From positions 1,824,001-1,888,000 of the forward strand of contig CM000150.2 in assembly GCA_000004695.1 (NCBI GenBank): DNA of 64,000 bases, given 5' to 3'. The notes beneath the pieces were generated by a model. That model searched no databases. It saw nothing but the letters and a program-made list of their open reading frames with translations, and was not told the origin of the DNA. Below are positions 22,133-26,294 of this stretch, one piece after another (position 1 is the stretch's first letter; every line of letters begins with the position of its first letter). The translations under genes and the position numbers were made by a program. The stretch comes from Dictyostelium discoideum. Lineage: Eukaryota.

Positions 22133-22560
22133 TTATGTTTTAATAGTATACTCTGGTATGGTATCAGGATCCATAAGCTTGTTATCCTTTATGCAATCAA
22201 AGAACCATTCCAATGTAACTAATTTTTGAATTCTGTCACTAAGTTCGTGTTGTGGTCTTATCAAACACAAACAATAGTGAGCTCCTTCTCGTCCTCTCAT
22301 TTCTTTATAGTTTTTAAATGAACCACCAGCACTTTCAATATCTGCTTTGGTATCTTTCCAAAAATCAACAGCTTTAATTGAGTGACCTATAGTATCGTTA
22401 ATGAATTGATTATTTTCAAGTTCTTCTATATCTTTCAATGAAAGATCTTCAAAACTTGGGAATATTGAAAAATTCTTTTTTGTAAAAATCTTGGAAAAAC
22501 TCATTGGTAACTATTTTTTTAAAAATAAAAAAAGAATATATGTTAGTAAAAGGAAGAAAG

Positions 22561-22611
<51 letters not shown>

Positions 22612-25036
22612 ACCAATTGACCTTTATAAACAGAATTTTCAGAAATAATAGTGAATTTCTTTTTATAATTGATTCGACTTAATTCACGTGGGAAAAATGG
22701 ATGATCATCAGATACAACATAACATCCTCTAAAACTAAAGTTTAAACTATCCACAATAAATCCATTATTTGCTATTATAAAATCTCTTAAAACAGCTGTG
22801 AAGGAATAATAAAGATGGTTAGTATGGTGGTAATAAAATAAAATAGTTTTCTAAAAGAAATTTTAAAACTTACATTTTCCTTTAATAGGGTCAGATAAAA
22901 CAAATGCTTTTCCATGTATTGATGGGATAGATAGCGCTCGTGAATTATCAACCATCAATGGTGGAATTGATTGAATGTTAGATTGAGTCAATGGCTCTGA
23001 AATTGATTCACAATCAGATTCAATCATTGGCCCTGAAATTGATTCACAATCGGATTCAATCATTGATTCAGAGTCATTCAATAAATCTGAAGGTGATTGA
23101 ATCAATAGTTTTGGAATTGATTGAATCAAAAAGGTTTTTGTTGGAGTTGGAGTTTTAGAACCAACAGGAGTTGATTGAACCAATAATTTTGGAGTTGATT
23201 GAGCCAAAACTTTTAATGATAGTTTTGTTAAAGGTGTTTTTGGTACTGATTGTCTTCGTCGAACTGATTGAACCAATGGTATTGGATCTACTTTTAAAGT
23301 TGGTGATTTTGGTAAAGTTTTTGGTGTTGTTGTTGTTGTTTTTGTTGTTGTTGTTGATTGTCTAGGTGATTGAACCAATTGATTTTTTGGTGGCGGTGAT
23401 GATGGTGTTGTCGTTGTTGTTGTTGTTTTTGTTGTTGTTGATTTTCGGGGTGATAGGAACATTGACTTTTGAGTTGGTTGGGCCAATGGTTTTGATTGAG
23501 TTTTGTAATTTGTTTGTTTAACTGGTGGTGATGTATCGATATCTGGTTTTGAATGTGTTGGTGTTGGTGGTGGTGGTTTATATGGTGATGATAATGTAGT
23601 TGTGGTGGTGGTTGTTGTTGTTGTTGTTAACGATTTTTTGGTTGTTTTAGTTGTTTTTGTAATTGTTTTTGTTTGCATTTTTGGTGATATAGGAGTTGGC
23701 AGTGATAGAGGCGTTTTAGTGACACGAGGTGATTGATTTTCAATTGGTGAATCTGTCATATATGATCTTCTCGTTCTCATTGGTGTTGGTTTAGAAATTA
23801 CAGATGGTGATGATTTTACAGGGGTAATATTAATTTTCTTTGGTGATTTTAAAATACTCTTTCTAGCTTCTTTTTCTTCTCTTTCTTTTTCTATTTCTAT
23901 TTCTCTCTGTCTTTGTTTTTCTCTTTCTATTTCTCTTTCTTTTTCTTTTTCTTTTTCTCTTTCTCTTTCTCTTTCTCTTTCTAATTCTCTTTGTCTTTCT
24001 CTTTCTTTTTCTATTTCTCTCTGTATTTCTCTCTGTATTTCTCTTTCTCTTTCTATTTCCCTTTCTCTTTGTATTTCTTTTTCTCTTTGTATTTCTTTTT
24101 CTCTTTGTATTTCTCTTTGTACTTCTCTTTGTATTTCTTTTTGTATTTCTCTTTCAATTTGTTTTTCTCTTTCAATTTGTTTTTCTCTTTCAATTTGTTC
24201 CTCCCTTTCTCTTTCAATTTCTGCTTCTATTTCCTTTTCTCTTTTTCTTTTTCTTTCTCTTTCTATCAGTATTTCTTTCTCTTTTTCTTTTTCTATCTTT
24301 TTCTTTGTCTCTGCATCATTATCAATATCATCATCAATATCATCATCTATCTCTAATTCGTCATCCTCGAGGATAGGTTCAGAGAGAATCTTCCCGCTTT
24401 TATCTGTAAATTTTCTATCTTTAAAAATATATGTTTGACTGTACAAATTAATATGATCCATATGAACCAATTTAGTTTCTTTTTTTAAGAGTGCTCCATT
24501 TAAATAAACTAAAGCTTCTCCCGAATTATTTATCGTTAAATTTTTTGATTCATAATTAATCACTGCCATAGTTTTTCTATTTAAATGTCGAAATTGAATA
24601 TTATTATCCTTTTTACTAAAAAATTTTAAAAAAGAGTATAGGGATTAGTAAACTATTGTATTTAAAATAAAAAAAATGAACAAAATAAATAAACAAAAAA
24701 TCTTATGATTTACTTACCCCCCAATCGTGAAATTTTTAGTTTGAATTTTATAATCAATACGATTAAGTGGATCATAAATAAATCCAAAATTATTTCTAAA
24801 AATTATGTGATAATAAATTTAAAGTTAGTATATATATTTTAGAGGAGAAAAAAAAAAAAAAAAAAAAAGAACTTACACTATATTTTTCTTTGGTTGGTGA
24901 GCATTATCATTTTCATGAAATGATGATTGTCTTTCTGTTTCACTTTCAAATAGTTTTCTTTTACGTCCACAACTATTGCCATTATTATTATTATTATTAT
25001 TATTTACATCACTTGTTTTTATACCATCATCATCAC

Positions 25037-25101
<65 letters not shown>

Positions 25102-25237
25102 GTTGTATTATTATTTACAGATTCGAGTTCAGTTTGTGTGCTTGTGTCTTGATAAAAGTTTGGTTTTGATATATTATTGTTGTTATTATTATTATTATTA
25201 TTATTATTGTTGCTGTTGTTGTTGTTATTAATATTAC

Positions 25238-25268
<31 letters not shown>

Positions 25269-25681
25269 ATTATTGTTATTGTTATTGTTATTGTAAGAAT
25301 TAGTAGTATGTACAGGAGATTTAAAGGCATAAAGCTTTGAAGGTGATGATAAAGGAGTAGTGAATAAACTATTTGAACTATAATGACCACTTGAAGGCGT
25401 CGATGGGGTTGATATAGCTTTACCAATTATAAAATGTATATGTGAATCAGTTTGTGAAATAGAAATATTATTATTTGTATCTAAATGAGTAATATTAATA
25501 TCTCTATATTTTATACTCCTATTTGATTCTTGGCTACTAATAATATCTTGACTACTATATTTTGTTTGACTATTAATGTAATTATTATGATTATTATGAT
25601 TATTACTACTATTATTATGATTATTACTACTATTATTATTGATATGAATACTATTATTATTATTACTATTACTATTATTTA

Positions 25682-25765
<84 letters not shown>

Positions 25766-26294
25766 TACTATTAGAATTTAATTGACTATTATTTATATCC
25801 TGACTATTAGTTATTTCCTGACTATTACTTATATCTTGACTATTACTTATATCTTGACTATTGGATATCTCTTGGCTACTATATATTTCTTGACTATCAC
25901 TTAAATCTTGGCTACTTAAGCCAAGTGATTTTATAAATTCTTTATAGTAGATACTATTTGTATAAATATTTTGACTTGGAATACTGCCCACAGAGTTTTG
26001 AGATGAGTTGATATTATTATTATTATTATTATTGGTGTTGGTGTTATTATTATTATTATTATTATTAATATTATTGATATTATTATTACTGTTATTAATA
26101 TTATTACTTATATTATTGATATTTTTATTTTTAATATGGTTATTGCTATTATTATTATTATCGTTAAGTGCACCACCATTGGGAACTATAGAATCAGGTG
26201 AATCATATGACGAAAGAGACACGGGTGATATATTTGGTGATGGTGAGGTGTAATTTGGCGAGATTAACGGTGAAATATACGAAGAAGGCATCAT
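22133..26294 (-). CDS. FHA-domain plus tandem-BRCT-domain protein, ~1260 aa, with an MDC1-like domain layout. It has 5 exons: join(24877..26294, 24708..24785, 22874..24615, 22614..22795, 22133..22510). Low-complexity regions include an N-terminal poly-Asn, an (RE/KE)n charged coiled region and a Pro/Thr/Ser/Lys-rich region.
   Basis: The FHA domain spans exons 2-3: FGFIYDPLNRIDYKIQTKNFTIGG|KKDNNIQFRHLNRKTMAVINYESKNLTINNSGEALVYLNGALL...LYSQTYIF. BRCT1 is ...IHGKAFVLSDPIKGK|SVLRDFIIANNGFIVDSLNFSFRGCYVVSDD.... BRCT2 is ...GGSFKNYKEMRGREGAHYCLCLIRPQHELSDRIQKLVTLEWFFDCIKDNKLMDPDTIPEY, with the W..DCI motif. All four junctions use GTAAGT or GTATGT donors and (T)nAG or CACAG acceptors and keep the frame. 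A TACTAAC-like element precedes the acceptor at 24787. Confidence 0.7.

Follow-up and report, generated by a model that had tools for sequence, protein, structure and literature searches.

The checkpoint mediators 53BP1, Rad9 and Crb2 carry an N-terminal SQ/TQ cluster for phosphatidylinositol 3-kinase-related kinases (PIKK), a self-association element, a nuclear localisation signal (NLS) and a C-terminal tandem BRCT. SQ is the target motif of ATM/ATR/DNA-PK-type kinases, and SQ clusters are phosphorylated in damage-response adaptors. Dictyostelium, a DNA-repair model which keeps the vertebrate-type DNA-PKcs, PARPs and the Fanconi pathway, has to our knowledge no characterised gamma-H2AX reader or checkpoint mediator. 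A 2021 review of Dictyostelium repair names neither a gamma-H2AX reader nor a mediator and leaves 53BP1-like mechanisms untested. A second layout, an FHA domain plus a C-terminal tandem BRCT, is that of the MDC1 family (Wei et al., 2014; PMC4013092). The same study suspected that the N-terminus of Mdb1 folds like an FHA domain but has diverged beyond the reach of domain-search tools, and listed two apparent MDC1/Mdb1 homologues with FHA and tandem BRCT, EAL70982 of D. discoideum and a protein of P. pallidum. Here we report on a gene in a 64,000 bp stretch of Dictyostelium discoideum chromosome 1 (GCA_000004695.1, contig CM000150.2, positions 1,824,001 to 1,888,000; GC ~22%), hereafter the window, to which all coordinates refer unless another locus is named. 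The gene occupies 26294-22133 of the minus strand, on which all its features are given.

As far as its sequence tells, this is a genuine, expressed-type protein-coding gene whose 1265 aa product would be a mostly disordered scaffold. From the N-terminus the parts follow in the order SQ cluster and NLS-like motif, FHA-like module, acidic patch, ER/K helix, Pro/Ser/Thr-rich (PST) region and two BRCT repeats. We lean, if only slightly, towards reading it as a lineage-restricted nuclear phospho-scaffold with the layout of a checkpoint or DNA-damage mediator, a function that we infer from these parts. In such a protein the BRCT pair would tether the molecule to a phosphoserine carried by chromatin or by a partner, most obviously that of the gamma-H2AX tail. 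For its part, the degenerate FHA-like module may serve in self-association or in phospho-independent binding, like the divergent FHA of fission-yeast Mdb1, whose FHA-like fold was reportedly confirmed later, by structural work, as a dimerisation module. The SQ and SP/TP regions, once phosphorylated, could offer docking platforms and the ER/K helix could act as a spacer, so that overall the protein would work much as MDC1, 53BP1 and Rad9 do, as a mediator of the checkpoint or DNA-damage response.

Using the adjacent 3'(2'),5'-bisphosphate nucleotidase gene as an anchor, we obtained the syntenic loci of D. firmibasis, D. dimigraforme and D. citrinum. Each holds one annotated gene at the same place and in the same orientation, with products of 1237, 1244 and 1184 aa, respectively, and our own protein-to-genome spliced alignment gave exactly 1184 aa for D. 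citrinum and 1244 aa for D. dimigraforme. The start MMPSSYISPL is common to the four species. Over the FHA-like and BRCT parts, the ratio of nonsynonymous to synonymous substitution rates (dN/dS) was 0.17-0.18 when compared with D. citrinum and D. dimigraforme and 0.42 when compared with D. firmibasis. Selection on the D. firmibasis orthologue (11254-15545 of its locus) thus looks relaxed, and for this species the annotation (1237 aa) and our homology-based model (1210 aa) differ at their 3' ends.

The two BRCT repeats lie at the C-terminus. BRCT1 (22502-22928; aa ~1062-1143) spans introns 3 and 4, and is followed by a linker (22376-22501; aa 1144-1185) with 64-83% identity to the orthologues and a dN/dS of 0.15-0.22, and by BRCT2 (22145-22375; aa 1186-1262), which stops 3 residues short of the C-terminus. 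The Pfam model BRCT_2 (PF16589) matched the D. discoideum tandem region in two stretches with 26.8 bits (E 6.4e-6), just 0.5 bits short of the cut-off of 27.3, while two of the three orthologous regions scored above it (D. dimigraforme, 31.7 bits; D. citrinum, 28.8 bits) and the third did not (D. firmibasis, 26.2 bits). BRCT2 alone reached 18.5 bits, and the second stretch, located in BRCT1, adds to the Pfam score. Two residues are invariant in the four species, Trp1242 of BRCT2 (LEWFFDCI, the Trp of helix alpha3) and Ser1073 at the end of the first strand of BRCT1. When human MDC1, whose tandem BRCT sequence was verified against PDB 2AZM, was used as a control, PF16589 also matched the second BRCT of the pair. 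We then compared the two halves separately with hhalign: BRCT1 scored 19.6 against MDC1 BRCT2 and BRCT2 scored 22.5 against MDC1 BRCT1, values reached by none of 100 column shuffles in either case. As a profile-profile yardstick, the two repeats of MDC1 scored 19.2 against each other. Since both halves beat every shuffle and MDC1's own repeats score alike, these results support two BRCT-type repeats at the C-terminus, with a similarity to BRCT domains that is generic. The original prediction had claimed a tandem BRCT whose second repeat carries the W..DCI motif; this Trp and the BRCT_2 match bear out the second repeat, and for the first the likeness is that of a general BRCT profile.

The first 470 residues had been described as a poly-Asn extension added in this lineage. 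Although exon 1 is 38% Asn, this description does not hold for the whole of it, as it contains conserved islands with 80-90% identity and a dN/dS of 0.07-0.28, and an SQ cluster kept in the four species. Residues 1-40, 96-170, 241-333 and 441-472 share 68-91% identity between species, their alignments having few gaps or none, and their dN/dS lies at 0.07-0.30, except for a noisy value of 1.09 in the short 441-472 segment when compared with D. firmibasis. The SQ cluster (25452-26003; aa 98-281) comprises 14 SQ sites, ten of them in aa 98-170. Between residues 96 and 300, Gln is preceded by Ser in 14 of 14 cases, compared with 3.0 ± 1.5 (maximum 10) in 10,000 shuffles. Eight of the 14 sites (aa 128-170) belong to an 18-nt tandem array that encodes SQ[DE]I[ST]N repeats (aa 128-171) and six lie outside it; the four species have ten sites in common, among them five of the six outside the array. 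An SQ/TQ cluster domain is commonly taken to have at least 3 SQ/TQ motifs per 100 residues, the working definition adopted here, and the cluster reaches this density. By analogy with known adaptors, it is of the kind that ATM/ATR/DNA-PK phosphorylate. Downstream, and preceding the FHA-like module, lies the basic motif GRKRKL (24951-24968; aa 443-448), of which RKRKL is kept in three species and appears as HKRKL in D. dimigraforme. It follows the classical basic NLS pattern and suggests nuclear import. A separate observation concerns the island at aa 241-333 (25296-25574), which reads KY[RK]DINITH[LI]D..NNNISISQTDSHIHFIIGKAISTPSTPSSGHY..SLFTTPLSSPSK, is 84-89% identical between species with a dN/dS of 0.17-0.28, and gave zero family matches.

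The FHA-like module (24378-24878; aa 473-578) spans introns 1 and 2. When a tighter piece was scanned, the Pfam FHA model (PF00498) matched aa 496-556 with 14.4 bits (E 0.054) over positions 2-66 of its 67, and was the sole family reported for the segment; the same span scored 16.3 bits in D. firmibasis and 15.8 bits in D. citrinum. Neither the full protein nor a 146-aa piece gave an FHA match in the Pfam scan. The segment is under purifying selection (dN/dS 0.14-0.24). Whereas an FHA domain is a beta-sandwich of 11 strands, AlphaFold2 (AF2), run on exon 3 alone without an alignment, placed only short beta strands in the segment at a predicted local distance difference test (pLDDT) score of ~44, and hhalign against the FHA of human MDC1 was not significant. 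At the position of the SxNG motif there is a sequence of the NSGEA type, in an alignment of ligand residues that was made by eye and agrees with the coordinates of the Pfam match. Taken together, we consider an FHA-type fold for aa 473-578 likely. If real, the domain is degenerate and probably does not bind phosphothreonine.

Between the FHA-like module and the BRCT repeats lie two regions of low complexity. The (REKEIQ)n region (23859-24317; aa 599-751), encoded by a 12/18-nt tandem repeat, was modelled by AF2 as a single alpha-helix of 153 residues with pLDDT > 90. Across species its composition is kept and its sequence and length vary, which is how an ER/K single-alpha-helix (SAH) spacer behaves; we therefore predict a stiff ER/K spacer helix of ~150 residues. 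The SAH domains of myosin VI, myosin X and caldesmon likewise consist of a long run in which Glu alternates with Arg/Lys and for which a single unbroken helix is predicted. In contrast to them, the repeat described here has an Ile every 6 residues, a regularity which makes a coiled coil or another form of self-association possible. The PST region (22959-23858; aa 752-1051) is predicted to be disordered, with AF2 pLDDT < 40. Many of the 35 [ST]P sites of the protein are located in it, together with L[VI]QS repeats and a handful of short motifs that are conserved, among them TPVK..VISKxTPMRTRRSY.

A number of results weigh against a mediator-like phospho-scaffold. The PF00498 score of 14.4 bits is below the Pfam cut-off of 20.7, the match is absent in D. 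dimigraforme, and the canonical ligand residues of FHA domains are missing in the four species, with G/S/G/A in place of the Arg of the GR motif, N/I/N/N in place of the Ser of SxxH and T in place of its His. As regards the BRCT pair, BRCT1 scanned alone against Pfam gave zero matches and is devoid of the usual Trp (ISENSVY stands at the corresponding place), and the phosphate-binding Lys of phosphoserine-reading tandem BRCTs has no alignable counterpart. BRCT proteins also act outside DNA repair. Searches of 1.8 to 5.8 billion proteins and metagenomes, in which the protein's own family is apparently missing, returned no relative outside the D. discoideum group; a PDB search with single sequences and four-species profiles retrieved no FHA or BRCT chain; and AF2 runs on single exons without an alignment gave low confidence for the globular parts (the exon-5 model, with pLDDT 51, was discarded, and that of exon 3 was of use for the helix and the disordered region alone). 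The FHA domain of the original prediction stands as a module split by intron 2 between exons 2 and 3, and falls short as regards the Pfam threshold and the phosphothreonine-binding residues.

When the spliced FHA and tandem-BRCT parts were used as queries, word-indexed protein searches gave no match and missed the protein itself as well. As the exact 1265-aa product is missing from that protein collection, the absence of homologues there is uninformative. An exhaustive phmmer search with exon 5 gave a single match, a mis-called 69-aa product of a D. firmibasis pseudogene fragment (described below), and two metagenome scans gave zero matches. We found no paper on the gene, including under the adjacent DDB_G identifiers, Q55F33 and XP_646837. 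Several assemblies annotate its product as hypothetical and list no domain for it.

Part of this evidence would also fit a nuclear BRCT scaffold that works in transcription, replication, ribosome biogenesis or cytokinesis, whose FHA and SQ features are by-products of low complexity. Such a protein would account for an FHA match that is sub-threshold and lacks the ligand residues, for an 18-nt repeat that supplies eight of the 14 SQ sites in an organism with repeat-rich proteins, and for a generic similarity to BRCT, a domain that many non-repair proteins carry. We nevertheless consider it unlikely, though the most serious of the alternatives. Low complexity does not explain the six SQ sites outside the array, five of which are conserved in the four species, nor a segment in which the FHA model is the sole family in three species, over its full profile span and with a dN/dS of 0.14-0.24. 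Moreover, an FHA-type module, a tandem BRCT and an SQ cluster in one protein are characteristic of damage-response adaptors.

A lineage-restricted mediator also has to be weighed against a true, very diverged orthologue of metazoan MDC1 and fission-yeast Mdb1, in which the BRCT pair would recognise the phosphorylated tail of H2AX as it does in those proteins. The module order, the PST-rich middle and the tandem BRCT at the extreme C-terminus are the same, and BRCT_2 has a match to the second BRCT of each protein. Nonetheless, a specific kinship with MDC1/Mdb1 failed in pairwise comparison, with an MDC1-family hidden Markov model (HMM) and with hhalign. In phmmer, the PDB-verified FHA and tandem BRCT of human MDC1 scored inside the range of shuffled decoys. 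The family HMM, built from 14 tandem BRCTs of vertebrates (human included), two chytrids and Rozella, gave 1.7 bits, which ranked 35 among 1444 scored sequences, nearly all of them shuffled decoys. When the four-species alignment was compared with the MDC1 family, hhalign returned a probability of 2.7% and crossed the repeats, pairing BRCT2 with MDC1 BRCT1. The near-invariant LVTDRIRRTVKFLCA of the MDC1 family, which includes the carboxylate-binding R1933 and the phosphate-binding K1936, has no counterpart in the protein. The invariant S1073 is the Ser equivalent to T1898, a phospho-binding residue of MDC1, and no Lys/Arg signature could be aligned along with it. The sequence contains no SDT motif, and none of its four TQ sites (386, 871, 880 and 1042) is a TQxF. 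These decoy-range scores and the missing LVTDRIRRTVKFLCA leave membership in the MDC1/Mdb1 family unsupported: the protein shares a layout with MDC1 and is not detectably related to it. The MDC1-like architecture of the original prediction thus survives as an order of modules, the family homology having gone undetected.

The published homologue EAL70982 could be this very gene, which would speak for orthology. However, the flanking genes bear the accessions EAL72915 and EAL72916, so that EAL70982 is out of series for the locus, and between them one number is passed over in both RefSeq and UniProt (XP_646837 and Q55F33). Given these accessions and the invisibility of the protein to MDC1 profiles, EAL70982 is probably another gene; the order of accessions is suggestive rather than conclusive. 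All in all, we hold true MDC1 orthology to be rather improbable.

Within the preferred reading of a lineage-restricted mediator, a bolder version can be sketched, which we offer as a speculation of low probability. A mediator of the D. discoideum group would join the MDC1 layout with the SQ cluster of 53BP1/Rad9, its SQ[DE]I repeats, after phosphorylation by ATM/ATR/DNA-PKcs, would mimic the gamma-H2AX tail, and its own BRCTs would bind them, leading to damage-induced self-assembly on chromatin. Such a protein could be the missing gamma-H2AX reader or mediator of Dictyostelium, either of independent origin or so diverged from MDC1 as to be unrecognisable. With or without this addition, we are dealing with a very divergent FHA/BRCT adaptor and not with a new kind of system.

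The modules above depend on a gene model assembled from minus-strand open reading frames (ORFs) of 473 aa (24873-26294), 568 aa (22863-24569), 101 aa (22449-22754) and 123 aa (22133-22504), all of which were present. The original prediction had joined the ORFs into a single gene of five exons, and we could confirm this: the joined exons gave one unbroken coding sequence of 3798 nt for 1265 aa, with three GTAAGT donors and one GTATGT donor, AG at all acceptors and a frame open throughout. The junction FTIGG / KKDNNIQF was found as quoted there. Exon 1 (24877-26294; aa 1-473, ending in phase 2) encodes the SP-rich N-terminus, the Asn runs, the SQ cluster, the 241-333 island and the NLS-like motif. 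It is followed by intron 1 (24796-24876; 81 nt, GTAAGT..TAG, at residue 473 in phase 2), with TACTAAC 30 nt from its 3' end. Exon 2 (24718-24795; 78 nt) codes for the strands with which the FHA-like module begins (VNNFGFIYDPLNRIDYKIQTKNFTIGG), and its peptide is 68-100% identical to the orthologues. It has no ATG of its own and its module is completed by exon 3, so exon 2 needs exon 1. After intron 2 (24616-24717; 102 nt, GTAAGT..TAG, TACTAAT 30 nt from the 3' end), exon 3 (22874-24615; 1742 nt) holds the rest of the FHA-like module, the acidic patch, the ER/K helix, the disordered PST region and the first strand of BRCT1. Intron 3 (22796-22873; 78 nt, GTAAGT..CAG, TACTAAC 24 nt from the 3' end) separates it from exon 4 (22614-22795; 182 nt), which encodes the core of BRCT1 and shows 57-85% identity to the orthologues. 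Finally, intron 4 (22511-22613; 103 nt, GTATGT..TAG, TACTAAC 33 nt from the 3' end) precedes exon 5 (22133-22510; 378 nt including the TAA stop), with the inter-BRCT linker and BRCT2.

The splice pattern is far beyond chance. GC content is 10-23% in the introns and 21-31% in the exons, GTA[AT]GT occurs in the window at 0.22 per kb per strand, and TACTAAC or TACTAAT lies 24-33 nt before the 3' end in four of the four introns, compared with 2% of random AT-rich 90-mers of the window. In a second D. discoideum assembly (GCA_054883475.1) the annotated gene has the same ATG, stop and 1265-residue product, and the splice sites transferred to it give an identical protein, the sole length difference being a 25-nt indel in intron 4. 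All four introns are kept in position and phase in the four species (residues 473, 499, 1080 and 1140) with varying lengths. As the second assembly, the syntenic orthologues, the conserved introns and the purifying selection agree, we regard the gene model, predicted from sequence alone, as settled. The idea that the ORFs belong to separate transcripts, or that exon 1 lies outside the gene, could invoke the 38% Asn of that exon, but it is close to refuted and deserves almost no credence, since exon 2 lacks a start codon and opens a module whose remainder is in exon 3, each of four independent annotations shows a single gene, with a common start and a product of 1184-1265 aa, intron 1 keeps its place and phase between species, and purifying selection acts on MMPSSYISPL and the exon-1 islands.

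Some further features of the introns were observed. The 50-nt poly-T run of intron 4 (22557-22606, read as poly-A on the plus strand) differs from its counterpart in GCA_054883475.1, which has 25 nt fewer, making it a length-polymorphic homopolymer between two D. discoideum assemblies. The yeast-like branch-point motif TACTAAC/TACTAAT is also found in the intron of the neighbouring nucleotidase gene (21097-21240) and occurs 40 times in the window; as it was present in every intron examined, it might aid intron finding across the window. Among the orthologues, D. firmibasis and D. dimigraforme have an extra phase-0 intron in BRCT2 (IKAV / DFWK; D. discoideum residue 1187, window ~22373) that neither D. 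discoideum nor D. citrinum has, and D. firmibasis has a further phase-1 intron within the FHA-like module, at residue 565. These represent intron loss or gain inside a very young group of species.

D. firmibasis also carries a partial copy of the 3' end of the gene (GCA_036169595.1, CM069765.1; 10001-10511 of that locus), on a chromosome other than that of the true orthologue. What it retains is the last part of exon 3 including the donor site, plus the linker and BRCT2; exon 4 is deleted. The copy, 78% identical to the gene of its own species and annotated with a 69-aa product, is interrupted by stops and frameshifts, and is probably a pseudogene from an old segmental duplication. We had considered it as the orthologous locus and rejected it, as it has other flanking genes and the true orthologue of this species maps to a different chromosome.

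In the window, the gene sits between the 3'(2'),5'-bisphosphate nucleotidase gene and DDB_G0268654. The spliced gene at 20690-21832 of the plus strand is identical to the former (EAL72915.1, XP_646836.1, Q55F34), and the ORF at 27313-27816 of the minus strand is identical to the latter (EAL72916.1, XP_646838.1, Q55F32) of D. discoideum AX4 chromosome 1. DDB_G0268654 is 167 aa long in AX4, whereas the annotation at the corresponding place of another D. discoideum assembly (10001-11232 there) has 386 aa. A 224-aa ORF on the same strand (27870-28544) adjoins it, giving a region of 27313-28544 on the minus strand. The longer annotation elsewhere and this adjoining ORF suggest that the AX4 model of DDB_G0268654 may be truncated.

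Our analysis turns a hypothetical protein into a concrete candidate for a knockout, by virtue of its BRCT pair, degenerate FHA-like module and SQ cluster. It also illustrates how mediators may evolve: linear motifs and the short modules that read phosphorylation are retained, whereas drift affects the linkers (Asn runs, ER/K helix, PST region), and such freely drifting linkers would explain why domain databases miss the protein. Should there be no kinship with MDC1, the protein would exemplify the convergent assembly of the same set of modules.

When set beside known systems, the protein has something in common with three groups. NBS1 (Nbn) also unites one FHA-type module and two BRCT repeats in one polypeptide. 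There, however, FHA-BRCT-BRCT are contiguous and N-terminal with a canonical FHA, whereas here the FHA-like module is degenerate and stands ~480 residues away from BRCTs that are C-terminal. Human MDC1, Drosophila MU2 and S. pombe Mdb1 have the same order as our protein, an FHA-type module upstream, a disordered PST middle and a C-terminal tandem BRCT. As here, BRCT_2 matches the second BRCT of MDC1, and the FHA-type module of Mdb1 is too diverged for domain tools and is devoid of phosphothreonine-binding residues. In contrast to this group, the RRTVK phosphate/carboxylate-binding signature and the SDT/TQxF repeats are absent, the FHA-like module is placed 470 residues from the N-terminus behind the SQ cluster, and a 153-residue ER/K helix is inserted. 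With 53BP1, Rad9 of S. cerevisiae and Crb2 of S. pombe the counterpart features are the SQ cluster, the NLS-like motif and the C-terminal BRCT pair. A Pfam scan of the full protein and of its pieces found neither a Tudor domain nor another methyl-lysine reader, and the central position held by Tudor in that group is taken here by the FHA-like module. Judged on its sequence, with homology to neither demonstrable, the protein resembles MDC1 in the order of its modules and 53BP1/Rad9 in its SQ cluster.

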